A stretch of DNA of 64,000 nt from an uncultured Clostridia bacterium (GTDB lineage: Bacteria; Bacillota; Clostridia; Christensenellales; UBA1242), in NCBI GenBank assembly GCA_945919375.1, contig CAMEJD010000002.1, positions 35,643-99,642 on the forward strand, given 5' to 3'. This document shows positions 5,801-62,030 of this stretch, piece after piece; position 1 is the stretch's first letter, and each line of letters begins with the position of its first letter. The position numbers and the translations under genes were made by a program. The notes under the pieces were generated by a model. The model searched no databases, had not been told where the DNA came from, and saw only the letters and a program-made list of their open reading frames with translations.

Positions 5801-8800
5801 GTTCCTGCGTTTTGGTTATTAACCTTTATTCTTCCTGCAAGTGTTTGACCACTTACAACAGAACCAGCGGTCATTGTCAAGTTTTCGTAATCAATGTATT
5901 GAACTTTGTTATTAAATGTCAAAACATAGCCATCTTTGATTGTAAGACTTATTTTTCTTGCTTTAATTTCGCCCTTTAGGTTTAAGTTGTCAATAACATA
6001 GTTTGAACTATCTTGACCTGATATTGTAAATTTGATTACATAATCATTACCAATTGTGTTTACAATGTCGCCATTGTCATTATAGTAATTACCAACAATT
6101 GTAACATCATCAATATTCCCATCTTTTGAGCAAATGTCTTGTGAAGTCAAATTGCCCAAAACATCACTTGTTGAATCATATTCTTTTGAAGTGTTGCAAT
6201 CAACAACAAGAATTTCTTTTTGTTTAACTTCAAATGTAAAAGTTGTGTCAATTGGATTAAACCCTTGAACTGATATTTGTAATCTTACACTATAACTTCC
6301 TGCATTGATAATTTTGTCTGTACGTGTATTGTTGTAAGTAAAATCGCTTATAATTGTTTGCCCATTATATGTGTTGTTGTTTACATCAAATCTGTGTTCA
6401 GTCCCATCAATTAAGAATGTTACATAAACTTCGCCACTTGCAAATTTATCTTTTCCGTTATAAACAAGAGATTCCAACGCTTCTGTATCAAATTCTTCAC
6501 TTGTGTTTGATATGATAATTGTACAAGTTAAATATTCAATACTATAATTTTGAGTTACATCATCTTTCATTTGGGTGATTGCTAGTGATTTGATGTAGAT
6601 TTCGCTTGAATTGTCAAATACCAAATTGTTTGGAAGTCCATTAACTTGATATGTTTTTGCAACACTGCCATTTGTTGAAAGAGTTGCAACCAACTTGTGA
6701 ATAGAAAGCAAACCTTCTGTTCTTTCTGCTGTTGGATCTATTATGTCTTTTGCTTCAACTTGATATGTTGCATTTATTCCGTCTTTATATCTTCTGTTAA
6801 TTGTGTCACGTACGTCAATTGCAATTTTTCTCTTTGCAATTTTTAGTGTTTCGTTAAAGATAAGTTCTTTTTGTTGAATCGCTTGACCATTATCAATTCT
6901 TACAAATCTATAGTTGCTATTTTCCGGCAAACTGATTTTGATATTATATTCACCCGCATTGATAGGTGTAACACTTACATTATTTTGCAAGTAGTCAACT
7001 TTATATTCAAAGTCGTCAACAATTTCTCCTTTAGAATCATATATTGATTCTTCAAAGGTTGGCAGTTGTTCTTTTGCATTATATACATATTGCAAATACT
7101 TTACATTAACTGTAACAAGTGCTGGTTTTATTTCTAGTGTGCCTACAAAACTTAGGTTATAGTTATCCAACCCTTCGCTTGTGCCAGATGCCAAAATAAT
7201 TTTTAATTTTGATAAATCAAAAGTATTCGTTGATATGTCATACTCACCAACATCTTTAATGTTAATCAAGACTTTCCCGCTCAAGATTTCTCTGTTTTCA
7301 AGTTCTGTAGGTGTAAAGTTAGAAATATCAATTTCAACAGTTTTTCCATCATAGAATTTTGAATATGTTTTTAGTGAAATAGTTTGATCTAATTTTGTAA
7401 TATCACCAAAGCCAAATGTTGTTAAAAGATTGTATGAATTTTCAATAAGTGGATTACCGCTTTTTAATACAAATTTAATTTTTTTCTTTTCTCCAACATT
7501 TTTGTTGTCATAGGTTGCTTCAATATATGCAAGATTTTCATCTTCTTTACAAATGTTTTTGTCTGCTTTGAACTTATAATCAGTGTCTTCAACATCTATA
7601 GTTCCGTCATACACTTTTGAAATTTCCAATAAATCCAAATCAACATCTCTTTGAGTAATTGTGTATGTGAATGGTTTGTTGTTTGCAATTTTATAGTTTT
7701 GGAGTTCAATTTCTAGTGCATATTCACCCGCATACTTGATATTCTCTTCACCTTGAACCAAAACGCCACTACGTTTTATTGATTTATATGTAAAATCTTC
7801 TATAGCACCATTTACACTGAAGGTTAATGAATGTGTTTGAGCATTATATTCATTTTGACTGCTTGAAATTATAACTTGACTTCTATCAATTCCCGCCTGT
7901 TTGATTATAATTTGTGCTTCGGCATGAATGATAATTTCATAGTTACGTGTGTAATCTTCTCCATCTTTGTAAATTGTTATTTCGGCTGGGTTTACAAAAT
8001 CCCTTTGTGCAACATAGTATGTTCCACAATCTTTTCCAGTAGTAACAAAGTTCCAAGATATACTATCTCCGGCACCCAAAGTGTTGTCTGCTATATCCTT
8101 TGACAAAATATAGATGTCGTCTTGTGCCTTGTCTACCTTGTAAGTGATTTTGTTGCCTGTGTACGCATACTCGGTTTGGAATCTTATTGATAGATTTCTT
8201 TTTATAATTGTGTAATTAAATTGTGTTTGAGTTGAAATAATCTCAAAGTTTATCTCATCGCTTGCACTCAACCTAAACTCAATTTGATAATCTCCCACTT
8301 GTAATGGTTGATAATTTATCTGTTCATAAGAACTTCCATTTTTAATATAGTAAACTTTTTCAAGTGAATTTGGCAAACTTGCATTCTTAATGTTATCGCT
8401 TCTTGTGAGTTCATATTTTATATCAATTGCAAGACCATTGTATGTATATGGACTAGTTGGACTGCACGCAAGAACAAGTTTTGCCTTGATAATTTCGATA
8501 TCATAAGCAAATGACGATATCTCATAGTTTGTGCTGTATACTTTGTTGCCAAATAACAAAGCGTCTTTGTTTATTTCAAGTGTGCTGTTATGGTTTGTGT
8601 ATCTTGCAACTTCTTTTGCTATAAAATTAACACTTCCATCAACATCTTCACCTGTAACAAGTCCTGTAACTTGTATGTTGTCTGAATTAACTTCAAATAT
8701 GTTTGTTCCGTCATATTGTTTTGAAACACCACTAACAACCACATCAACTGATACTTTGTTAATTGTTCCATATATTGTGCCATTTGGGAATGCCAAGATA

Positions 8801-22899: not shown

Positions 22900-22928
22900 A
22901 AAAAAAGCAGTTGGGTTAAACTGCTTTT
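22900..22928 (-). terminator. Rho-independent terminator downstream of tuf.
   Basis: On the minus strand: aaagcagtt-taaccc-aactgcttt followed by a T7 run. Confidence 0.6.
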
Positions 22929-22983
22929 CTTATATAGAACCTATAATTGGGTTAAGATTATAGATTAAAATCGTTTACTCAAA

Positions 22984-24186
22984 TTATTTAATAATTTTTG
23001 TAACTACGCCTGAACCAACTGTTCTGCCACCTTCACGGATAGCGAATCTAAGTCCTTCTTCAATAGCGATTGGTGTGATAAGAGAGATTTCCATTGAAAT
23101 GTTATCTCCTGGCATTACCATTTCTACGCCATCAGGAAGTTTAATTGTTCCAGTAACGTCTGTTGTTCTGAAGTAGAATTGTGGTCTGTAACCATTAAAG
23201 AATGGAGTATGACGTCCACCTTCTTCTTTCTTAAGAACGTAAACTTGAGCTGCGAATTCTGTGTGTGGGTGAATTGAACCTGGTTTTGCAAGAACTTGTC
23301 CTCTTTCGATTTCATCTCTGTTGATTCCACGAAGAAGAAGTCCTACGTTATCTCCTGCTCTTGCTTCATCAAGAAGTTTTCTGAACATTTCAACGCCTGT
23401 AATAACAGTTTGTTTACCAGAATCTTTCATACCGATAATTTCAACGGTATCATTCATTCTTACAACACCTCTTTCTACTCTACCTGTTGCAACTGTACCA
23501 CGACCTGTGATTGTGAATACGTCTTCAACTGGCATCAAGAAAGGTTTGTCTGTTTCACGAGCTGGGTCTGGAATGTATGAATCAATTGTGTCAAGTAATT
23601 CTTGAATAGGTTTTAACCATTCACTATTAAGATCTCCAGCTTCACAAGCTTCGCAAGCCTTAAGTGCTGAGCCTCTGATGATTGGAGTTGTATCTCCTGG
23701 GAATCCATAAGATGTTAATAAATCTCTAACTTCCATTTCAACAAGGTCAACAAGTTCTGGATCTGCTTGATCCATTTTGTTTAAGAACACTACAATGTAT
23801 GGAACACCAACTTGTCTTGCAAGAAGAATATGTTCTCTTGTTTGAGGCATTGGACCATCTGCTGCTGAAACAACAAGGATTGCTCCGTCCATTTGTGCAG
23901 CACCTGTAATCATATTTTTAACATAGTCTGCGTGTCCTGGGCAGTCTACGTGTGCATAGTGTCTCTTTGCTGTTTGGTATTCAACGTGTGCTGTGTTAAT
24001 TGTAATACCTCTAGCTTTTTCTTCTGGTGCTTTATCAATATCTGCATATTTCATTGATTCAGCAAGACCTTTAAGAGCACTATATTGGCAAATTGCTGAA
24101 GTAAGAGTTGTTTTACCATGGTCAACGTGTCCGATTGTACCAATGTTAACGTGAGTCTTAGTTCTGTCAAATTTTTCCTTAGCCAT
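22984..24186 (-). CDS. tuf: Elongation factor Tu.
   Basis: 400 aa. Motifs [18 protein letters not shown] and NKMD. Full-length, unmistakable EF-Tu sequence with RBS AAAGGAGAA. Confidence 0.98.
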
Positions 24187-24229: not shown

Positions 24230-24258
24230 ATAATAACACAAATTTTTATAATTGACAA
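24230..24258 (-). promoter_or_regulatory. Candidate sigma70-type promoter for tuf in the fusA-tuf spacer.
   Basis: On the minus strand: TTGTCA (24258-24253), 17-nt spacer, TATTAT (24235-24230). Confidence 0.4.
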
Positions 24259-24394: not shown

Positions 24395-26470
24395 TTAGTT
24401 GGATTTTTTACGTTCTCCAACAATTTTTTCGGTAATTGATTTTGGAACTTCTTGATATTTAAGTGGTTCCATAACAAATGTACCTCTTCCTTGTGTTTGA
24501 GAACGAAGGTCTGTTGCATAACCGAACATTTCTGCAAGTGGAACTTCTGCTCTAACTCTTTGATATCCTGGGATAGAGTCATTTCCAAGAAGTATACCAC
24601 GTCTTGATGTCAAGTTACCCATAACTGTTCCAAGATAATCATCTGGAACATCAACTTCAACCTTCATAATAGGTTCCAAAAGCACTGGGTCAGCTTTTGC
24701 TGCACCTTCTTTAAATGCAAGGCTTCCTGCGATTTTGAACGCCATTTCACTAGAGTCTACATCGTGGTAAGAACCATCAAATACAGTTGCTCTAAAGTCT
24801 GTTGTTTCATAACCGGCAATAACACCATTCATTCTTGCTTCATCAATACCTTTGTTAACTGGTTGAATAAATTCTTTTGGAATTGATCCACCAACTGTTT
24901 TATCAACAAATTCATATCCTGAACCTGGTTCAAGTGGTTCAAACTTAACCCAGCAGTGTCCATATTGACCTTTACCACCAGATTGACGAATAAATTTACC
25001 TTCTGCTTCAACAGTTTTTCTTATTGTTTCTCTGTAAGCAACTTGTGGTTTACCTACATTTGCTTCAACTTTGAATTCTCTAAGCAATCTATCAACAATA
25101 ATTTCAAGGTGAAGTTCGCCCATACCAGAAATAAGGGTTTGTCCTGTTTCTTGATCAGTTTGTACTCTAAATGATGGATCTTCTCTTGCGAGTTTTGCAA
25201 GGGCAAGAGCCATTTTTTCTTGCATATCTTTTGTTTTTGGTTCAATTGCAAGTTGGATAACAGGTTCTGGGAATTTCATACTTTCAAGTTGAATTGGGTG
25301 AGCTTCATCACAAAGTGTGTGTCCTGTTATTGTGTCCTTAAGTCCAACAATAGCAGCAATATCACCTGCTTTAACTTCTTGAATTTCTGTTCTGTTGTTT
25401 GCATGCATACGAATAAGTCTTCCAACTCTTTCGGTTTTTCCATTGTTTGCATTATAAACATATGAACCTGCTTTAAGTGTTCCGCTATATACACGGAAGA
25501 ATGTCAATGAACCAACATATGGGTCAGTTGCAATTTTGAATGCAAGACCTGCAAGTGGTGCATTTGCATCTGGGTGTCTAAATTCTTCTTCGCCTGTTTC
25601 TGGGTTAATTCCTTTAATTGACTCAACATCTGTTGGGCTTGGCAAATAATCAACCATTGCATCAAGAAGGTTTTGAACACCTTTGTTTTTGTATGATGAA
25701 CCACAAAGCATTGGGGTAACTTTCTTTGCAATTGTTGCCTTTCTTATTGCCTTTTTAAGTTCGTCGATACTAATTTCTTCTCCAGCAAAATATTTCTCAA
25801 GCAAAGCATCATCAGTTTCTACAACTGATTCAATAAGTTCTTCATGACGTTTCTTTGCTTCTTCTTGATATTCAGCTGGGATTTCAACTTCGTCCAAGAT
25901 TTTTCCCAAATCATCTTCTGGAATATATGCTTTCATTGTCAAAAGATCAATAATACCTTTGAATGATTCAGCCATTCCAATTGGCATTTGAAGTGGGAGT
26001 GGTTTTGTGCGAAGTCTATCTCTTACAGACTCAACACATTTGTCAAAGTATGCATCATCTCTATCCATTTTATTAACAAAGATGATTACAGGGACTTTGC
26101 ATTCATTTGCTTGACGCCAAACAGTTTCTGTTTGAGGTTGAACTTTATCTCTTGCAGAAAGTACCAAAACGGCACCATCAAGAACTTTTAATGAACGCAA
26201 AACTTCAATTGTAAAGTCAACGTGTCCCGGTGTATCAATAATGTTTATTTTGTGACCTTTCCAATGGCAAGTTGTACAAGCAGAAGTAATTGTGATACCT
26301 CTTTCTTGTTCTTGTTCCATCCAGTCCATTGTTGCAGCACCATCGTGAACTTCACCAATTTTGTGGTTGATACCTGTATAGAAAAGAATTCTTTCGGTTG
26401 TTGTGGTTTTGCCGGCATCAATGTGCGCCATTATACCGACATTACGAGTTAACGCTAAATTCTCGTCCAT
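24395..26470 (-). CDS. fusA: Elongation factor G.
   Basis: 691 aa. Motifs [23 protein letters not shown] and NKMDR. RBS AAGGAGAAAA. Confidence 0.98.
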
Positions 26471-26613
26471 AATTTTCTCCTTATTTTTATCTAAATAATT
26501 TTTTCTAAATTAAATAAAACTATTCGTTTTTTACTAAAAACGACAAAAACTATTTAATAAATATAACTCTCGAGCGAAATATTTATATAAATTTTAAAAA
26601 TTTTTATTTTGAA

Positions 26614-26641
26614 ATATTAAGTATTTTCAAAATTTTTTCAA
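26614..26641 (-). promoter_or_regulatory. Candidate sigma70-type promoter for fusA-tuf, downstream of the repeat array.
   Basis: On the minus strand: TTGAAA (26641-26636), 16-nt spacer, TAATAT (26619-26614). It lies about 140 nt upstream of the fusA ATG. Confidence 0.4.
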
Positions 26642-26683
26642 GTTTTATGCAAATTATTTTTTAATAACAAAAACTTGAATAGT

Positions 26684-27029
26684 GTAAATTTTTAATTTTT
26701 AACAAGAAGTGCTAGGCTCTATTTCAACTAGCCCCTTTTTGCAAAACTAAAAATTGTTTCTTGTAAATTTTTAATTTTTGTTAAGAAAGACGAGGCTCGC
26801 TTGATAAATTTGCGTAGGAGTTTAGTTCTATCTAAATGACTATGCAAATTTCGTCAAGCAGAAACAAAGTATCCAAAACAAAAACTTTGATTTACGTAAA
26901 TTTTTAATTTTTAACAAGAAGTGCTAGGCTCGACAAATTTGTTCACGCAGGAGTTTGCTGACGCAAATGACTGTGTGACGAATTTGGCAGTAAACGACGC
27001 AATTCGCAGTTAAAAATTAAAAATTTTAC
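26684..27029 (+). repeat. Array A of nested-hairpin elements: three head-to-tail copies in the rpsG-fusA spacer. Candidate structured RNA or REP/MITE-like element.
   Basis: Copies: A1 26684-26762 (central hairpin deleted), A2 26763-26895, A3 26896-27029. Each starts with gtaaatttttaattttt. A3 has outer arms gtaaatttttaatttttaac / gttaaaaattaaaaattttac and a core of aagaagtgctaggctcg ... cacgcag-GA-gtttgc-tgac-gcaaat-GA-ctgtgtg ... agtaaac ... cgcag. The right arm overlaps the rpsG stop codon (27026-27028). Confidence 0.7.
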
Positions 27030-27499
27030 CATTTGTAATGAGCAAAAGCCTTATTAGCTTCAGCCATTCTATGCATTTCATCTCTTCTCTTAATTGCAGC
27101 ACCTTGATTGTTATAAGCATCAAGTAATTCGCCAGCAACTTTTTCTTCCATTGTTCTTTCACTGTTTCTCTTTCTTGCGAATAAAACAATCCAACGAATG
27201 GCAAGAGTTTGTCTTCTTTCAGGTCTGATTTCCATTGGTACTTGGTATGTTGCACCACCAACTCTGCGACCTTTTGTTTCAAGAACAGGTTTAACGTTTT
27301 CAATTGCTTGTGTGAACACGTCAATTGGGTCTGAACCAGTCTTTTCTTTTATAATGTCAAAAGCACCATAAACGATTGATTGAGCAATACCTTTCTTTCC
27401 ATCATACATAACTTGGTTAATAAATTTTGTAACTAGTTTGTTGTGGAATTTTGGATCTGGTAATACATCACGTTTTGGCACACCACTTCTTCTTGGCAT
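27026..27499 (-). CDS. rpsG: 30S ribosomal protein S7.
   Basis: 157 aa beginning [18 protein letters not shown], ending ...AFAHYKW. RBS AAAAGGAGAA. Confidence 0.97.
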
Positions 27500-27540: not shown

Positions 27541-27912
27541 TTATTTAGGTTTTTTTGCGCCATATTTTGAACGGCTTTGCATACGTTTTGCAACACCTGA
27601 AGAATCAAGTGCACCACGAACGATGTGATAACGAACACCTGGAAGGTCTTTTACACGTCCACCACGAACAAGAACAACGCTGTGCTCTTGAAGGTTGTGT
27701 CCGATTCCTGGAATATAGCAAGTTCCTTCTTGACCATTTGAAAGCTTAACTCTGGCAATTTTACGAAGAGCTGAGTTAGGTTTTTTAGGTGTTGTTGTTT
27801 TAACAGCCAAACATACACCACGTTTTTGTGGGCAGTTTTCAAGGAGTGGTGATTTGCTCTTTTTATCAAAAGATTTTCTTCCACTGCGAACCAACTGGTT
27901 AATTGTAGGCAT
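27541..27912 (-). CDS. rpsL: 30S ribosomal protein S12.
   Basis: 123 aa. Begins MPTINQLVR; also contains [10 protein letters not shown] and [30 protein letters not shown]. Confidence 0.97.
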
Positions 27913-28164: not shown

Positions 28165-28193
28165 AATATACACGATTTTACCCAATTTGTCAA
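28165..28193 (-). promoter_or_regulatory. Candidate strong sigma70-type promoter upstream of rpsL.
   Basis: On the minus strand: TTGACA (28193-28188), 17-nt spacer, TATATT (28170-28165). This implies a leader of roughly 245 nt. Confidence 0.45.
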
Positions 28194-54168: not shown

Positions 54169-57100
54169 CTATCCCAATTTCTCTATTTTTGCAATTTTCT
54201 TTTTTAATGCGTTAATAACCTTTGTCTTGCTGAGCCACCAATCTCTGCTCCAAACTCTGTATATATTCCAACCACGACTTTGCATAAATGCTGGATGATA
54301 TACATCTCGCTCTAGTATACTTGAACTACTGTCAAATACTGAATAGTCAAATTCAATGCCAAGAATATACTTATCTTTTTTCTTGTTATATACTGCAAGT
54401 GGGAGTTTATAGTTTGCATTCCCAATGTTTCTTTCAACAGTATAACCTTCACCAATAAGCATTTCTTCAAGTTCGGCAACCATTTTTTCATTAAGGTCAA
54501 TAGGTGGTAATTGTTTTTCTGGGAGCAAGTTATCCAAAATTATTTTTGTTTCTATTTTGTTATTATTTGAAACTGCACGAACATATCTTAAATATTCTTT
54601 AAAGAGTTTTGGCCCAACATTTTTTGAACCAGTTACATTCAATTCTTCAGGCTCTATACTTGTTACAACATAAATTTTTTGCTTTGCTCTTGTTATGGCA
54701 ACATTAAGTCTGTTTTCCCCACCTTCATTTGAAAGTGAACCAAATCTTGCAACAACCTTGCCATACTCATTTTTTGCATATCCCGTTGAGAAAATAATTA
54801 TATCTCTTTCATCCCCTTGTACATTTTCAAGGTTCTTTACAAACAAACTTATATCTTCGCCATCTTCCTTTCTGTTTTGCTCCATCAAAAGTGCATTGTG
54901 GAATTCAAGGTCTTTTGATGCAAGTTTGTCAATTTCATCTTCAATTGCATTTTCTTGTTCAAGGTTAAATGTAATTATTCCAATACTTCCCGTTCTCTTT
55001 TTATCTTTTAACAGTTTACACAAAAGTTCAGCAACCGTTTTTGCTTCAACTTCATTTTTGGTGTTAATCCATTTGCCTTCAACTTTGATTCTTTCAATTG
55101 GAAGTTCTTTGTTATTTTTTGTAACATCCGGTGCAATTTGCAATTTCTTTGAATAGAATGCATAGTTTGAAAAATTGATAAGTGCTTCACTTCTGCTACG
55201 ATAGTGATATGTAAGGTTGCTACTAAAATATCTGCTTGTGGCAAGGTCCAACAAACTTTCAACTTCCAATGCGGCTTGTGTTGAATAGTCCATATCTTCC
55301 AAATCGTCATTTCCCATATATCTTTTTAGGAATGTTGCAGTTGGCCTTAATTGCTTACTATCGCCAGCAACAACAATATGTTTTCCACGATAAATGCATG
55401 GCAAAGTATTTTCAATAAACACTTGAGAAGCTTCATCAAATACAACATAATCAAACATTTCTTTTTCTAGTGGTAAAATTTGACTTGCAATTTCTGGGCT
55501 GAGCAAAAAGCATGGAAATAGTTTTAACAAATAATCTTTATACACTTGCATACATTTTCTTATTGGCCACAAGTTTTGTTGTTTTGAAATTTGATATAAG
55601 AAGTTTTTGCTTGTTTCTTGATTTTCCATAAAGAACTCTTTATATTCACTTGCATTCTTCTCATAACACAAGCGTTTGTCAAGTTCAAGTTGCTCTTGTT
55701 TTAGGCTTAGAATTCTGTTTCTAATATTAGAAAAGTCCGACAACTTTGACAAATCTTCTTTGTGTAAATCTTCTTGTTTGATTACTTCGTTATATGTCCT
55801 AAATACAACAATTTTGTCTACAATATATTTAAAGTTTTTATAGTTGTCACTATTTTTGTATGCAAACTTTAATATTGCTTTTTCTTGGTCAGTTAGTTCT
55901 TCCAAACAAACATTGATATCCCTTATTTCAACATATTCATCAAGTGCATTTGCAAGCATTTTTAAGTACATTGTATTTCCGCTTACTATATTGTCAAGTG
56001 TTAGCAAATAACCTTTCGGCTCAAGCACCTTTTGTAGCACATCATATCCTTGAATATATTCTTTTAGGTCTTTTAATGTTGCATCAAAAGTGCTTTCAAT
56101 TTCCTTTTCTATTTTGTTTGTTTTATTTTTTATAAATGGATACATAGGCAAAAGGATATGACTTGCATTAAGTTTGGCATAGAGTTTTGGATATCTTGTT
56201 GATGCAATGTATTTTGTCAGTGGGGAATAGTCAATTTCTTCACTTTCGTTATGTTCAAGATAGTATGAAAGCAAATCTCTTGCATATGGCCTTTTTGTCA
56301 TATCAAAAGGAATAAACTTTGAAGATATTACGCTTTTGATTAGATTTTGTGCTTGGCTTAATGTGTGAATGTCAATTCCGCTTTTTATGTAGTCAATAAG
56401 TGGGTTTATTTGTTTTTTCTCTAGGAACTTAAAATACAAATTATCTTTTTTCTTGTCTTTTATCAATCTTTGAGCTTCGCTTATTGTTGCAAAATCCATA
56501 TTCATTATTTCTTCGTTTTGTTGCATATTTTGGAACACTGTGTAATCTTTGCTGTTTTTTCCAATTATTTCACTATTTGCATACATTTGTTGCAAAGTTA
56601 GTCCGTACTCTCTTTGTGCAAACAAAACATCATTCATACTTTCAAGTTCACTAATCTCGGTGTCAATTTGTTCTTGCAAAGTATGATACTTGTCAAGAGA
56701 TGCTGTTTCTTCAATTTGCATAATATTTTCGTGTTCCAATTTTGCTTTTTGATAAAACTCTGCTTTTGCCTTGTCACTATCGGCAATAAGCATTGCCTTT
56801 TGATTTAGTGTGGCAAGTCTGTTATACACAACATCAAGAGCCGCTTTCTTTTGACTTACAACCAAGACCTTTTTACCTTTTGTAAGAGCATCAGTTATCA
56901 CATTTACAATTGTTTGGCTTTTACCTGTTCCCGGTGGTCCATATATTACCATATTTGAGTTGATATTAAGGTTTTTTATTGTTTCACTTTGTGCATAGTC
57001 AAGGTTGCTAATTGGGAACATATCTTGATTAACTTTTTTATTTTTCTTTGCAGATTTTGCAAGAAGTAATTCATCAATGGCAGATGTTGTAAGTTGCTTT

Positions 57101-57954
57101 TTCTCCAAAACTTCGTAGTCATTATATATGCTGTTAGTTAAAGGGAATCTCCCCAAAATACAATAGTTAAAAACTTCAAGACCGCCTTGTTTTGGGTCTT
57201 TGTCTTGAACAAAAGGAACAAAAGAATTTGATGTATTATTTGTGATATGTATATCAAATTTTTCCAAATAGTCAACAACATCTTGAACATTTTTGAAACC
57301 ATTTGATTTTAGATCATCAAAATCTGTTTCCATTTCATCAATATTTAATTTTCTTGCTGTGGCATAAGCGAACAAAAGAACCTTGTTAAACTTTATTGTT
57401 TCATTGCTCAAAAGTTCAATGCTTGCTGTTGTTTCATTTTCTATATTTATGCCAACTGGAAACATAACAAGTGGTGCTCTTACCATTAAATCTTTTCCGA
57501 TATAGCCTTCAACAAAAGGATACCCAACATAAAGTTCGTATCTCCCTGTTTCTCTTTCAAACTCTTCTATCTCTCTTTTTAATTGTTTTAGGCAATTTGT
57601 TTCATGAATCATCATTCTTTTTAATTCTTGTTTTTTTGCCCTTTCAATTTTAAGGTAGTCAGTTTTTTCTTCTCCATTTTCATCTTGATATGTTGTTTTG
57701 TATCTGTTTAACTTATCTTCAACATTAAGATTTTTGTAAATTAAATCTTTGTCACTTTTGCCAATGATTTCAAAAGTAAGTTTTTTGCCTGACCATAAAA
57801 AATCTACAAGCAAATCTGTCATTTTTTCATCGCCCGCAAAAATTTTACCAATATCGTAACTAAATTTGTTTGTCACTCTTTTTGTATAAAGACTTCTATT
57901 TTTTCCGCTTATTTCAATCAATCTTTGTTTGTAAAATTTGTAAATTCTGCTCAT
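54169..57954 (-). CDS. Large SF1 (Upf1/DNA2-like) helicase with a DUF4011-like N-terminus and a C-terminal restriction-endonuclease-like domain.
   Basis: Preferred start is MSRIYKFYKQ at 57954. N-terminal LIEISGKNRSLY and YELYVGYPFVEG...VRAPLVMFPV. Walker A VIYGPPGTGKSQT, Walker B VVFDEASQV, then VVAGDSKQLRPT, YHYRSRSEALINFSN, VQGDERDIIIFS and RLNVAITRAK. C-terminal ILGIEFDYSVFDSSSSILERDVYHPAFMQSRGWNIYRVWSRDWW. Confidence 0.8.
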   Translation of the reverse strand: MSRIYKFYKQRLIEISGKNRSLYTKRVTNKFSYDIGKIFAGDEKMTDLLVDFLWSGKKLTFEIIGKSDKDLIYKNLNVEDKLNRYKTTYQDENGEEKTDYLKIERAKKQELKRMMIHETNCLKQLKREIEEFERETGRYELYVGYPFVEGYIGKDLMVRAPLVMFPVGINIENETTASIELLSNETIKFNKVLLFAYATARKLNIDEMETDFDDLKSNGFKNVQDVVDYLEKFDIHITNNTSNSFVPFVQDKDPKQGGLEVFNYCILGRFPLTNSIYNDYEVLEKKQLTTSAIDELLLAKSAKKNKKVNQDMFPISNLDYAQSETIKNLNINSNMVIYGPPGTGKSQTIVNVITDALTKGKKVLVVSQKKAALDVVYNRLATLNQKAMLIADSDKAKAEFYQKAKLEHENIMQIEETASLDKYHTLQEQIDTEISELESMNDVLFAQREYGLTLQQMYANSEIIGKNSKDYTVFQNMQQNEEIMNMDFATISEAQRLIKDKKKDNLYFKFLEKKQINPLIDYIKSGIDIHTLSQAQNLIKSVISSKFIPFDMTKRPYARDLLSYYLEHNESEEIDYSPLTKYIASTRYPKLYAKLNASHILLPMYPFIKNKTNKIEKEIESTFDATLKDLKEYIQGYDVLQKVLEPKGYLLTLDNIVSGNTMYLKMLANALDEYVEIRDINVCLEELTDQEKAILKFAYKNSDNYKNFKYIVDKIVVFRTYNEVIKQEDLHKEDLSKLSDFSNIRNRILSLKQEQLELDKRLCYEKNASEYKEFFMENQETSKNFLYQISKQQNLWPIRKCMQVYKDYLLKLFPCFLLSPEIASQILPLEKEMFDYVVFDEASQVFIENTLPCIYRGKHIVVAGDSKQLRPTATFLKRYMGNDDLEDMDYSTQAALEVESLLDLATSRYFSSNLTYHYRSRSEALINFSNYAFYSKKLQIAPDVTKNNKELPIERIKVEGKWINTKNEVEAKTVAELLCKLLKDKKRTGSIGIITFNLEQENAIEDEIDKLASKDLEFHNALLMEQNRKEDGEDISLFVKNLENVQGDERDIIIFSTGYAKNEYGKVVARFGSLSNEGGENRLNVAITRAKQKIYVVTSIEPEELNVTGSKNVGPKLFKEYLRYVRAVSNNNKIETKIILDNLLPEKQLPPIDLNEKMVAELEEMLIGEGYTVERNIGNANYKLPLAVYNKKKDKYILGIEFDYSVFDSSSSILERDVYHPAFMQSRGWNIYRVWSRDWWLSKTKVINALKKKIAKIEKLG

Positions 57955-58350
57955 TCTAATATTTTTCCCTTTGCTTAAAAATATTAACATAAATATTAAA
58001 AAAAATAAAGATTAAAATTGAAATATTCTCATCTTTTTAATAAAATAATTGACAAATATATATTTTCATTATTTTTGAAATTTTAAATACTGCCATTATT
58101 CTCACATTGGTTTGTTCATTCAAAATTTTATTTAATGTTTTTTCACAAATTCAACACTTTTTGCAAAATTTTTTTTGCTAATTTTTAGTTTTTATATAAT
58201 CAATTATTTTATTTACATTTAAACTATTTTTTAATTGCATATTACTATCCCCCTCCTTATATTTAATGTCTTATCAATTTATCTATATCATTACATCTAT
58301 GTAATACCAATAAATTTATTACACTTTTGTAATATCATAATTTGATAGAA

Positions 58351-58571: not shown

Positions 58572-58895
58572 ACTCGCATAAAAAATCTGGCAGGAGTTTG
58601 GTTTCACCCAAATGACTGTCAGAGAGTTTTCCTAACTAGGTGTGATGCATTTATTTTAGGCACAAAAAACAAGATATACGAGACTCGCATAAAAAATCTG
58701 GCAGGAGTTTGGTTTCACCCAAATGACTGTCAAAGAGTTTCCCCCAACTAGGTGTGATGTATTTATTTTAGGCACAAAAAACAAGATATACGAGGCTCGC
58801 ATAAAAAATCTGGCAGGAGTTTGGTTTCACCCAAATGACTGTCAGATTTTTTATGCAGTAAACAAAGTATATCGCAGTTTTTTGTGCCTAAAATA
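58572..58895 (+). repeat. Array B of nested-hairpin elements: units of 111 and 112 nt, then a 101-nt final unit that completes the full palindromic element.
   Basis: Units begin at 58572, 58683 and 58795 with (a/g)ctcgcataaaaaatctggcaggagtttggtttcacccaaatgactgtca. B1 and B2 are near-identical by eye (a few substitutions and small indels). The complete element B3 is 58764-58895, with a 19/19-bp outer helix tattttaggcacaaaaaac / gttttttgtgcctaaaata. Its right arm covers the gpmI stop codon (58888-58890). Confidence 0.75.
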
Positions 58896-60390
58896 GTGGG
58901 GTAGACATATCTTTTGGTATATCCCTTTCAAGCCCCATAATCTTTAATATCGTTGGCGCAACATTACACAACTTACCTTTTGCGAGTTTTACATTCTTAT
59001 ATTTTTCACTAATAAGCCAAAGCGGTACTGGGTTTGTTGTGTGGCTTGTGATTATATTGCCTTTTTTATCTAGCATTTCTTCACAATTGCCATGGTCGGC
59101 TGTTATTATACAGTGTCCACCGGCAGTTAGACAAGCAAGCGCAATCGCATATGCACATTTGTCCACAACTTGAATTGTTTGTTTTGTTGCGTCCAAATTA
59201 CCAGTATGTCCAAGCATATCCGGGTTTGATAAATTAACCAAAATAAAATCATATTTTTGCGATGCAATTGCTCTTATCACTTCATCGGTTATTTCGTATG
59301 CTTTCATTTTGGGCGTTTTGCTAAAATCTTGCACATTTTCACTTTCAATAAGTTTTCTATCTTCATTTTTGTATGGTTTTTCTATTCCACCATTAAAGAA
59401 AAATGTTACGTGTGCATACTTTGTTGTTTCACTTGTGTGAAATTGTTTTAAGCCTTTGCTTGAAATTATCGCCGACAAATTATCTTCAATTTTTTCAGGT
59501 GGATATGCAATTAGTACATCCTTAAAATCAGCATTATATTCTGTCATACAACAATATGTTAAATTGTTTAGGTGTTTTGTTTCAAATTTATCAAAAGGCT
59601 TTTGTGTTAATGCTTCTGTAATTTCTCTTGCCCTATCGGTTCTATAATTAAAGAATATAACAGAATCGTAACTATCAATTGTTGCAGGCTTTCCGATTAT
59701 TGTTGGCAAAACGAACTCGTCATAAATTCCATCTTTGTAACTATCGTTAAGTGCAGTTACTGCTTCTTGATAGTAGTTGTCTGCTTGACCAAGGGTTAGC
59801 ATATCATAAGCCTTTTCAATTCTATCCCAGCGATTTTCCCTATCCATTGCATAAACTCTTCCACAAAGAGATTTGATTTCTGCCTTGCCTTGTATGTGCT
59901 TTTTAAGTTGCTCAATAAACTTTACACCACTATCTTTCAAAGTATCTCTTCCATCCATAAAACAATGAATATAAACATTTTTTATGCCTTTATTTTTTGC
60001 CATATCAACAAGTGCATACAAATGATTTATGTGACTGTGAACACCACCATCGCTAACAAGCCCCATAATATGCAAACTTGAATTGTGTGCCAAGCAATTA
60101 TCCATTGTTTTGTTTAGTGCCGAGTTTTTAAAAAAGTTGCCATTTGCAATTTCATTATTTATTTTTGGCAAATCTTGATAAACAATTCTACCTGCACCTA
60201 GATTCAAATGTCCAACTTCACTATTACCCATTTGACCATCAGAAAGTCCAACAGCTTCCCCACTTGCAAGAAGCTTAGTGTGTGGAAAATGTTTTAATTT
60301 GTCAAGATAAGGTGTGCCCTGCAATTTTATTGCATTGCCATACTTACTTTTATTTATTCCAAATCCATCTAATATTACTAACGTTACCAT
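58888..60390 (-). CDS. gpmI: 2,3-bisphosphoglycerate-independent phosphoglycerate mutase.
   Basis: 500 aa. Motifs ILDGFG, NSEVGHLNLGAGR, SDGGVHSH, NLSNPDMLGHTG and ITADHGN. Confidence 0.95.
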   Translation of the reverse strand: MVTLVILDGFGINKSKYGNAIKLQGTPYLDKLKHFPHTKLLASGEAVGLSDGQMGNSEVGHLNLGAGRIVYQDLPKINNEIANGNFFKNSALNKTMDNCLAHNSSLHIMGLVSDGGVHSHINHLYALVDMAKNKGIKNVYIHCFMDGRDTLKDSGVKFIEQLKKHIQGKAEIKSLCGRVYAMDRENRWDRIEKAYDMLTLGQADNYYQEAVTALNDSYKDGIYDEFVLPTIIGKPATIDSYDSVIFFNYRTDRAREITEALTQKPFDKFETKHLNNLTYCCMTEYNADFKDVLIAYPPEKIEDNLSAIISSKGLKQFHTSETTKYAHVTFFFNGGIEKPYKNEDRKLIESENVQDFSKTPKMKAYEITDEVIRAIASQKYDFILVNLSNPDMLGHTGNLDATKQTIQVVDKCAYAIALACLTAGGHCIITADHGNCEEMLDKKGNIITSHTTNPVPLWLISEKYKNVKLAKGKLCNVAPTILKIMGLERDIPKDMSTPLF

Positions 60391-61510: not shown

Positions 61511-61623
61511 AAAATTAACCACAAGAACGCAACTCGGCAAAAATGCCACATAGGAGTTTAGTTTTTTCCCAAACGACTATAGTGGCATTTTTGACAGAAA
61601 CAGAGTTAATGTGAGTTAATTTT
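61511..61623 (+). repeat. Copy C of the nested-hairpin element family: a single, more diverged copy.
   Basis: aaaattaaccac-aagaacgcaactcg-gcaaaaatgccacatag-GA-gttt..aaac-GA-ctatagtggcatttttg-ac-agaaac-agagttaatgtgag-ttaatttt. Same architecture as A2, A3 and B3. It ends 5 nt before the stop codon of the 61629-62030 gene. Confidence 0.6.
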
Positions 61624-61628
61624 ATGTT

Positions 61629-62030
61629 TTAAATGGCAATAATTTTCACCCTTGCATATATCGTACTCATTCCCCCACTTGCTCTTACTATTATAGTTAT
61701 TGTCCCAGTTTTGTTAAAGGATACTCCACCCCAAGACGTAACTTGGGCAACTGTGTTAGTTTTGTCATAAACAAATTCAACATCTTGTGATGCAGTTTCC
61801 GGATATACTTTCCATGTTATTGTATATGTTTTTGTTTCTTCAAAATCTAGTACTATATATTTATAGTCGCCTTCACTGTCACTTGTTTGTTTTAGGTCTT
61901 GGTTTGTTATTTCAACTTTCTCGGGCTTTATTACTTCATTATAACTTAACATCTTCATACCAAAAAATCCCACAAAAGCAATGGATGCTATGTAGATTAT
62001 TAGTATTAAGATTACAACCGATTTTTTCAT
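61629..62030 (-). CDS. Membrane-anchored protein with a bacterial Ig-like (Big_2-type) domain.
   Basis: 133 aa with RBS AAAGGAAA. N-terminal TM helix VVILILIIYIASIAFVGFFG. The segment VYPETASQDVEFVYDKTNTVAQVTSWGGVSFNKTGTITIIVRA resembles the Big_2 pattern. Confidence 0.6.
   Translation of the reverse strand: MKKSVVILILIIYIASIAFVGFFGMKMLSYNEVIKPEKVEITNQDLKQTSDSEGDYKYIVLDFEETKTYTITWKVYPETASQDVEFVYDKTNTVAQVTSWGGVSFNKTGTITIIVRASGGMSTIYARVKIIAI

Follow-up and report, generated by a model that had tools for sequence, protein, structure and literature searches.

A copy-number-variable array of long hairpin elements between rpsG and fusA in uncultured gut Clostridia, and its possible role in the messenger RNA

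The str operon is among the most conserved and most highly expressed of bacterial gene clusters. In the 64,000-nucleotide stretch of DNA analysed here (referred to as the window; contig CAMEJD010000002.1 of an uncultured Clostridia bacterium), a gap of 555 bp separates two genes of this operon, rpsG and fusA, which encode ribosomal protein S7 and EF-G, respectively. The rpsG-proximal part of the gap is filled by a head-to-tail array of structured modules, and these are very probably members of a family of long hairpin elements that is seemingly undescribed so far. The best overall explanation, to which we would give an even chance, is a recombining array of this element that is read through by transcription and has a role in the RNA, be it at the 3′ end, in stability or in processing. 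With a structured element of variable copy number fixed in the str operon across a clade of abundant uncultured gut bacteria, the rules of E. coli or Bacillus are no guide to operon architecture in this clade. An earlier reading, made from the sequence alone, had drawn attention to the possibility of a split operon; of greater interest is the element family as such, conserved and abutting stop codons.

Anatomy of the spacer and the hairpin family

In the list of open reading frames (ORFs), rpsL (27541–27912), rpsG (27026–27499), fusA (24395–26470) and tuf (22984–24186) all lie on the minus strand. The gap between rpsL and rpsG is 41 bp, and the distance of 555 bp (26471–27025) that the sequence-only reading gave for rpsG and fusA agrees with the ORF coordinates. 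The rpsG product has 157 amino acids and its gene ends with a TAA stop at 27028–27026; Pfam PF00177 matches the identical S7 protein on other contigs. The 691-residue EF-G is preceded by a ribosome-binding site, AAGGAG, 8 nt before the ATG of fusA. The same reading had divided the spacer into three head-to-tail structured elements near rpsG, the first of them beginning on the rpsG stop codon, and an AT-rich part near fusA, and this division stands. The 345 nt next to rpsG, read on the minus strand, consist of two complete hairpin elements (A and B) followed by a truncated one (C), all head to tail; the TAA forms the first bases of A, and the fusA-proximal part comprises some 210 nt with a GC content of 0.12–0.20. 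The region 26600–27040 folds at −104.7 kcal/mol, compared with −71.6 ± 5.8 kcal/mol for shuffled sequences (z = −5.7).

Element A (26896–27028, minus strand, 133 nt) is recognized by its fold, by the covariance model R1 (90.1 bits, E = 2e-20) and as an inverted repeat (I4). Its arms form a perfect 18-nt inverted repeat, AAATTTTTAATTTTTAAC / GTTAAAAATTAAAAATTT, and its structure of minimum free energy has −37.8 kcal/mol (z = −5.6). From the base inwards come the stems P1 (outer) and P2 (inner), a GUUU/GAGC helix in which ACU is bulged, and P3; a 3 × 3 internal loop, UCA/CUC, then underlies the apical stem-loop UUUGC-GUCA-GCAAA. Element B (26763–26895, minus strand, also a complete hairpin of 133 nt) is a paralogue of A, found by fold and by R1 (80.7 bits); its stem sequences are unlike those of A and its 5′ outer arm is degenerate, but the core is the same (AGTCATTTAG..CTAAACTCCT), and it folds at −32.8 kcal/mol (z = −5.0). 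Element C (26684–26762, minus strand, 79 nt), identified by blastn and by its fold, is an internally deleted copy. By blastn its 3′ 36 nt align with the 3′ end of A without a mismatch (36/36), and the core has been lost, leaving a ‘solo right end’ with a short residual hairpin that folds weakly (z = −2.4) and gives no match to the R1 model. Comparison of the spacer among strains further identifies a solo left arm of 18 nt without an element, ACTATTCAAGTTTTTGTT, at 26666–26683 (minus strand); the same 18 nt open element B in other strains, and the solo arm is a likely substrate for unequal recombination. A 20-nt right-arm motif occurs four times in the 64-kb window, where 0.4 occurrences would be expected, and all four lie in the rpsG–fusA spacer. 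The spacer contains no ORF of at least 40 amino acids in the ORF list, no Rfam family and, in our scan, no terminator-like site.

The first link to a wider family came from a profile search with A and B, which matched a 112-nt tandem repeat elsewhere in the window (58572–58897). The copies have in common the core AGTCA-TTTNN-loop-NNAAA-CTCCT ... GAGCC, the apical stem of which covaries (TTTGC/GCAAA, TTTAG/CTAAA, TTTGG/CCAAA). A scan of one genome per species with the core pattern AGTCATTT N8-12 AAACTCCT N15-18 GAGYC yielded at least 115 loci, with about 10 chance matches expected by our own estimate. The family-wide numbers of copies given from here on (100, 113, 121, 127 or 138, for example) are those among the matches listed. 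In 111 of 121 copies a block that the pattern did not request, GTTT(A)CTG, lies upstream of the core at 15–16 nt; GAGCC is followed by TYG, and every pattern match folds as a long hairpin, two of the matches (L013 and L111) resembling chance matches in coding DNA.

The family unit is a near-perfect hairpin of 105–135 nt, with locus-specific stems and a conserved apex and internal loops; the consensus is YGUUU(A)CUG ... AC-AGUCA-[UUURS-loop-SYAAA]-CUCCUG ... CGAGCCUYG. In the shared architecture, the outer half consists of P1 (locus-specific, often A-tract/T-tract), P2, a 3 × 3 loop and the GUUU/GAGC helix with its ACU bulge, and the inner half of P3 (~14–17 bp and fully variable), a 1 × 1 mismatch, CAG/CUG, the 3 × 3 loop UCA/CUC, the apical stem and a loop of 4–7 nt. 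Of the cells in alignment A1, which comprises 113 copies, 83.8% are paired, as against 63.6% after shuffling and at most 48.8% when the partner is slid along; the covariation score is 0.452 versus 0.129, and none of 500 shuffles reaches 0.452. The blocks conserved in this alignment are GTTT(A)CTG, AGTCATTT, AAACTCCTG and GAGCC. The most abundant subfamily has an extra AT-rich hairpin (GAAAAATTT..AAATTTTTC), on the 5′ side only, that creates a three-way junction. One such copy (L021:5470-5660) folds at −63.4 kcal/mol (z = −7.2), and the subfamily is also represented at loci L016, L024, L034, L039, L047 and others.

Rfam release 15, searched at the gathering threshold, finds nothing in the window except one tRNA, and at E-values up to 10 both arrays in the window and the three-way-junction copy give only hairpin matches far below threshold. 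Searches of the literature by topic and by core sequence returned no description of the family, and the supplements of a catalogue of structured RNAs from the human microbiome contain no match to it (PMC8040213). That catalogue does list unnamed palindromic candidates of ~110–130 nt, among which there may be an anonymous earlier sighting of the family.

Distribution, retention and turnover

Nearly all loci matching the pattern are in metagenome-assembled genomes (MAGs) of uncultured, Christensenellales-like gut Clostridia or ‘Christensenella sp.’, often on many contigs of the same MAG. Bacteroidota (a Geofilum isolate, Phocaeicola and Rikenellaceae among them) and Spirochaetales (Spirochaetota) contribute a few. 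A scan of 2.9 million viral contigs gave a single match, and the family is therefore not phage-associated. On the basis of crude ORF calls, the element and its nearest upstream gene share their orientation in 86 of 100 cases, and convergent gaps outnumber divergent ones by 24 to 5. The distance from stop codon to core has a sharp peak at 39–55 nt across the family. Counted from the first base that follows the stop, the outermost base pair is at −11 to +2 in 33 of 53 copies, so that hairpin base and stop codon overlap. Housekeeping genes lie upstream, many of them related to translation: S7 (seven species), AsnS (four) and NusG (two), together with EF-G, GreA, Frr, DnaK, Obg, S1, L17, GyrA and GpmI. 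Tandem arrays are common (44 of 123 sources have at least two copies). Within 8-kb pieces around the copies, no recurring transposase or other candidate parent or ‘master’ gene was found among the neighbours, only housekeeping genes. Flanking dinucleotides are identical in 4 of 52 copies, which is about the chance level, and no target-site duplication is seen; the TA/TA flank of the gpmI copy discussed below is an isolated case.

The copy behind rpsG is old and is retained at a fixed offset in many species. In all seven rpsG pattern matches the stop-to-core distance is 52–53 nt, and the rpsG–fusA spacers of these species, where complete, measure 408, 518 and 1039 bp and hold one to three copies. 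The locus was also fetched for S7 proteins of falling identity to that of the window. At 94% identity (species L126) the spacer is 425 bp and contains two element copies. The element is present at 84% (430 and 392 bp, two samples), at 82% (237 and 330 bp) and at 81% (332 and 452 bp). At 80% (261 and 417 bp) there are one or two copies in which all stems have changed and the loop is retained, as GG-UCA-CGUAU..AUACG-CUC-CC. At 78% a spacer of 187 bp holds an AT-rich hairpin without the core, and at 77% the spacer is a compact 51 bp with no element. Long spacers and elements therefore occur together, and one relative has a compact operon. The sequence-only reading had suggested comparing the spacer in related genomes, with long spacers devoid of elements as the outcome that would speak against it; the relatives with long spacers carry elements. 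Because it is kept after rpsG across so many species, the rpsG element is more than junk.

At the level of strains the array is variable. Ten contigs encode the identical S7 protein and represent the species of the window; their spacers are 343, 424, 462, 555, 556, 635 or 720 bp long, and the arrays read A, B′-C, A-B-C, B′-B-C or B′-C-B-C, where B′ is a B-type interior inside the outer arms of A. Each array is followed by the constant 210-nt distal part, the unique AT-rich region of which (26471–26665, minus strand) no strain lacks, however many elements it carries. The borders between modules and the end of the array repeatedly show the junction sequence AAATTTAC|ACTATTCAAGTTTTTG, a recurrence that fits unequal recombination between shared arms, and we infer that copy number probably changes between strains by this route. 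No empty site was seen among ten strains at rpsG or ten at a third locus in the window (described below), only copy number and fragments varying, and transposition is therefore not shown. The arrangement of the window is that of the MAG GCA_019973165.1 (contig JAIFIH010000078.1), a contig that also holds the gpmI and third loci, and a strain search at the gpmI locus matched this MAG only. Within the species, nucleotide diversity is 0.003 in A (one segregating site in 133 nt) and 0 in B′, as against 0.013 for the unique spacer and 0.022–0.024 for the third codon positions in rpsG and fusA. The low diversity of the elements points to constraint or homogenization.

Several of the strain assemblies break into Ns at the rpsG array, and runs of N lie exactly inside repeat arrays in the metagenome scaffolds at L004, L009, L058 and L144. 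The arrays break short-read assemblies, and the copy numbers of MAGs are therefore probably underestimates; the same arrays could serve as strain markers. In one related species, two family copies (L094:6423-6528 and 6627-6732) follow the fusA stop, between fusA and tuf, so the second junction of the str operon can also be occupied.

Probable transcription through the array and competing explanations

Whether transcription passes the array is best judged from the sequence that follows each hairpin. A T-tract, defined as at least six T in an 8-nt window directly after the P2 stem, is present in 79 of 127 family copies, typically as ..GAGCCTTGYCTYGCTTGTTTTT. Together with the position at gene 3′ ends, it makes the typical family member resemble an elaborate intrinsic terminator, and elements that bear it most likely serve as transcription terminator and 3′-end hairpin of the upstream gene. 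The copies behind rpsG differ: the tract is found in 79 of the 120 non-rpsG copies (66%) and in none of the seven rpsG copies from the scan (Fisher p = 8e-4), or in 1 of 15 when those fetched via S7, which are not all independent, are included (p = 1e-5). The tails of the rpsG copies are A-rich instead, and the best 8-nt windows after A and B contain four and three T. The selective absence of the T-tract at the one locus with an essential gene downstream in the same operon is the strongest argument from sequence for read-through, and it is rather likely that transcription from the rpsL promoter passes the rpsG elements into fusA. The likely promoter of the str operon is TTGACA-17-TATATT, upstream of rpsL (28165–28193, minus strand), which at 11/12 is the best match of the region. 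The genome has ordinary terminators elsewhere, for instance after tuf and greA; the one after tuf (~22900–22929, minus strand), read by eye, is canonical (AAAAGCAGTT..AACTGCTTTTTTT).

Other features point to the RNA of the sense strand. Apical loops begin with G in 104 and end with A in 107 of 138 copies; 22 of 57 tetraloops are of the GNRA type and none is of the reverse-complement type; and there are two conserved G.U pairs in the GUUU/GAGC helix. Sense-strand RNA is indicated by these G...A loops and G.U pairs together with the 86:14 orientation and the context-dependent T-tract. The extra hairpin of the three-way-junction subfamily, being on the 5′ side only, breaks the symmetry that a DNA site would have.

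On the explanation favoured here, the element would belong to the transcript of the upstream gene, as its 3′ untranslated region. An element with a T-tract would terminate transcription and leave a very stable 3′ hairpin; at rpsG, where the tract is lacking, transcription from the rpsL promoter would continue into fusA. One element family may in this way supply both terminators and read-through hairpins, according to context. The long hairpins, of the 50-bp class, could present a barrier to 3′-to-5′ exonucleases and a double-stranded target for RNase III, and might uncouple the stability of the rpsL–rpsG and fusA–tuf parts of the transcript without a full split of the operon. This last step is suggested because of the analogy with the ERIC, REP and Correia elements considered below, and a stability or processing role for the rpsG hairpins is accordingly put forward as tentative. 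A bolder version, which we consider doubtful, is that the family is a new class of functional 3′-end RNA element rather than a selfish repeat: the core would be recognized by a conserved protein or RNase, placement on the stop codon would let the terminating ribosome control folding, the element would mark housekeeping mRNAs across Christensenellales (with relatives in Bacteroidota and Spirochaetota), and the version without a T-tract in the str operon would tune the ratio of S12/S7 to EF-G/EF-Tu.

Several points weigh against a read-through array that acts in the RNA. Factor-dependent termination is compatible with a missing T-tract, and the AT-rich 210 nt may contain a real fusA promoter. 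The invariance of the core is partly fixed by the search, because the pattern demanded the core, and the orientation bias could in part be a bias of the replication strand rather than of transcription. In the variable stems, G.U pairs (86) are no commoner than A.C mismatches (98), as expected from maintenance of a DNA-level palindrome, or from young copies, and not from an RNA helix under long-term selection. Neutral repeat dynamics would also accommodate the variation in copy number, the truncated ‘solo ends’ and the gaps in assemblies.

The sequence-only reading had offered the alternative of a split operon, in which the hairpin array would terminate, or nearly terminate, the rpsL–rpsG transcript and fusA–tuf would rely for its expression on a new promoter within the distal, AT-rich part of the spacer. 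We regard this as unlikely, although most family members (79/127) do have a terminator-like T-tract and lie at gene 3′ ends. The copies behind rpsG almost never have the tract, the scan found no terminator-like site in the spacer, and this genome ends operons with ordinary terminators, such as that after tuf; the proposed hairpin terminator, and with it an independent fusA–tuf unit, finds no support there. The hairpins may instead be tolerated within the operon or act as a processing site. The promoter that this reading called good, TTGAAA-16-TAATAT (26614–26641, minus strand), is a 9/12 match of a kind expected by chance in AT-rich DNA: the region contains nine sites of this type and shuffled sequences 7.6 ± 2.6. 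No counterpart is recognizable in the species with 94% S7 identity. Its hexamers are invariant among strains, which fits a promoter and is uninformative given so few single-nucleotide polymorphisms (SNPs). Also in favour of a split, diversity in the unique 210 nt is below that of synonymous-like sites, and tuf has its own good promoter-like site, so that internal promoters do occur in this operon; this site, read by eye in the 208-bp fusA–tuf spacer, is TTGTCA-17-TATTAT with a TG extension (24230–24258, minus strand). The AT-rich region contains a further structure, a small hairpin (26509–26558, minus strand; inverted repeat I5) with the inner stem UCGUUUUU/AAAAACGA and a T-rich stretch after it, that may be a leader or a weak attenuator. 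Its fold has −10.9 kcal/mol (z = −2.0), a G.U pair is retained where other strains have a C>T SNP, and its 3′ arm ends ~39 nt, and its inner stem lies ~55–75 nt, before the fusA ATG. Similar small hairpins ahead of fusA were also seen in other species (L020 and L126).

It has also to be considered that the elements are neutral, selfish or hitch-hiking DNA: palindromes like those of REP elements or of the miniature transposable elements with inverted repeats known as MITEs, spreading and recombining as DNA and tolerated in 3′ regions, with no role in the str operon. The equal frequency of G.U and A.C in the stems, the many near-identical copies within single MAGs, and the polymorphic copy number, truncated fragments and frequent tandem arrays are what this would predict. 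Against it stand the same offset after rpsG retained to ~80% S7 identity, a diversity in the elements about sevenfold below that of third codon positions, and the asymmetries already described (the 86:14 orientation, the context-dependent T-tract and the one-sided extra hairpin). Nor is there a target-site duplication (4/52), a recurrent transposase nearby or an empty site in any strain examined, and a neutral origin of the whole pattern seems to us somewhat doubtful. A further suggestion, decidedly unlikely in our estimate, takes the UCA/CUC loop and the apical loop closed by G...A as the putative binding or cleavage site of a conserved protein that would co-ordinate the 3′-end fate of mRNAs for translation and other housekeeping functions. 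It would explain why the core is retained where all flanking stems have changed (L130, L131) and in other phyla (the Geofilum isolate, Phocaeicola, Rikenellaceae and Spirochaetales), and it fits the GNRA-like loops, the enrichment of upstream genes for translation and the existence of the three-way-junction subfamily; it is at odds with the lack of anything comparable in Rfam, the diversity of the upstream genes and the absence of a wobble asymmetry in the stems. If the core does bind a factor, there would be a new post-transcriptional layer for housekeeping genes in Christensenellales. Very improbable, finally, is a function of the DNA such as has been proposed for BIMEs in E. coli, with cruciforms, or the binding of gyrase or nucleoid proteins, absorbing supercoiling after heavily transcribed genes. 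The elements do follow highly expressed genes and their stems are maintained as DNA palindromes would be, but the asymmetry of strand and orientation, the GNRA-type loops and the pattern of T-tracts are unexpected for a symmetric DNA site.

Resemblance to known elements and other copies in the window

The ERIC or IRU sequences of Enterobacteria and Vibrio are imperfect palindromes of ~127 nt that form one long hairpin over their whole length and lie in transcribed intergenic regions; ERIC reportedly alters the stability of the upstream mRNA in an orientation-dependent manner. The family described here is similarly an imperfect palindrome with a single full-length hairpin in transcribed intergenic or intercistronic gaps, but the likeness is architectural only. 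Sequence and host clade are different, and the ERIC consensus is not known to be related to that of the family. In the present family, moreover, the apex and internal loops are conserved and the outer arms locus-specific, the base lies on the stop codon, and there are a strong orientation bias, head-to-tail arrays and a dimorphism of the T-tract. Correia or NEMIS elements of Neisseria and BOX elements of the pneumococcus are co-transcribed hairpin repeats of 100–150 nt that make RNase III targets or terminators; Correia elements are marked by conserved inverted repeats at their termini and by duplication of a TA target, and BOX elements are built of boxA, boxB and boxC modules. The modular architecture and variable copy number are shared with both, whereas the termini in our family are not conserved and there is no target duplication.

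REP and BIME sequences (E. coli, Pseudomonas), mobilized by RAYT transposases, resemble the family in being multi-copy extragenic palindromes at gene 3′ ends, often in composite arrays. A REP measures 20–40 nt and bears GTAG or CGTC as a tag, and the orientation of REPs alternates within BIMEs. Membership of this class was rejected, since the units measure 105–135 nt, no conserved terminal GTAG or CGTC tag appears in the 113-copy alignment, and all units in the rpsG, gpmI and other arrays are head to tail on one strand. REPs have been proposed to be mRNA stabilizers, terminators and modulators of translation near the stop codon (PMC2817692, PMC3733652, bioRxiv 10.64898/2026.03.23.713779). Intrinsic terminators are similar to most family members, which have a hairpin followed by a T-tract at a gene 3′ end, often with an upstream A-tract; they differ in that the hairpin here is four to five times longer and has a conserved sequence core, and in that the rpsG copies are without a T-tract. 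Copies A and B themselves are not intrinsic terminators, there being no U-tract directly after the hairpin and no terminator-like site in the scan.

A MITE derived from an insertion sequence was rejected because the outer arms (P1) differ by locus and the conserved sequence is internal, with no parent element among the neighbours, no target-site duplication (4/52) and no empty sites in ten strains at each of two loci. An autoregulatory site for S7 in the mRNA is contradicted by the same motif after asnS, nusG, gpmI, dnaK, greA and other genes, and by its distance of more than 200 nt from the fusA start. An integron attC site was dismissed as well: the AAC...GTT base occurs in copy A by coincidence and is absent from B and from the family consensus, conservation is at the apex and not the base, and the genes nearby have housekeeping functions. 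AGGAG..ATG occurs in the reverse complement of the core, but the frames of a small ORF on the opposite strand are not conserved between A, B and the gpmI copies. Among RNA motifs, a kink-turn lacks its tandem G.A pairs, the ‘A-GUC’ and ‘CUGA..GAAA’ resemblances to hairpin or hammerhead ribozymes are not common to all copies and have no Rfam match, and GAGCC is on the wrong helix strand for domain V of a group II intron. An anti-Shine-Dalgarno role for CUCCU does not agree with the many copies in convergent gaps that have no downstream gene, and sites for CodY or DnaA and dif-type sites were not matched when the sequence was read for them.

R1, run unfiltered over the window, finds the rpsG copies, those behind gpmI and a diverged third copy. 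The best-scoring member (58776–58882, minus strand; 100.2 bits) follows gpmI (58888–60390), and its outer stem reaches ~58897 and includes the TAG stop of that gene. Two further 112-nt tandem units (58572–58767, minus strand) score 43.6 and 32.5 bits. For the array as a whole (58572–58897, minus strand), Tandem Repeats Finder reports a period of 112 with 2.5 copies at 96%. It consists of one full copy and two units that have an unrelated 35-nt segment (TAAATRCATCACACCTAGTT...) in place of the 5′ half, the last unit being truncated. The diverged member (61513–61620, minus strand; 62.7 bits) lies directly after the stop of a 133-aa ORF (61629–62030), in the gap to the convergent greA, and is present in all ten strains examined (L135–L144). 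In some strains an extra ‘solo right end’ fragment lies beside it, together with a cassette of ~620 bp carrying a small membrane ORF and an HTH_XRE gene. A 1273-aa ORF downstream of the gpmI array (54169–57990, minus strand) appears helicase-like, the identical gene in the MAG having DUF4011, AAA_11, AAA_12 and MTES_1575 domains.

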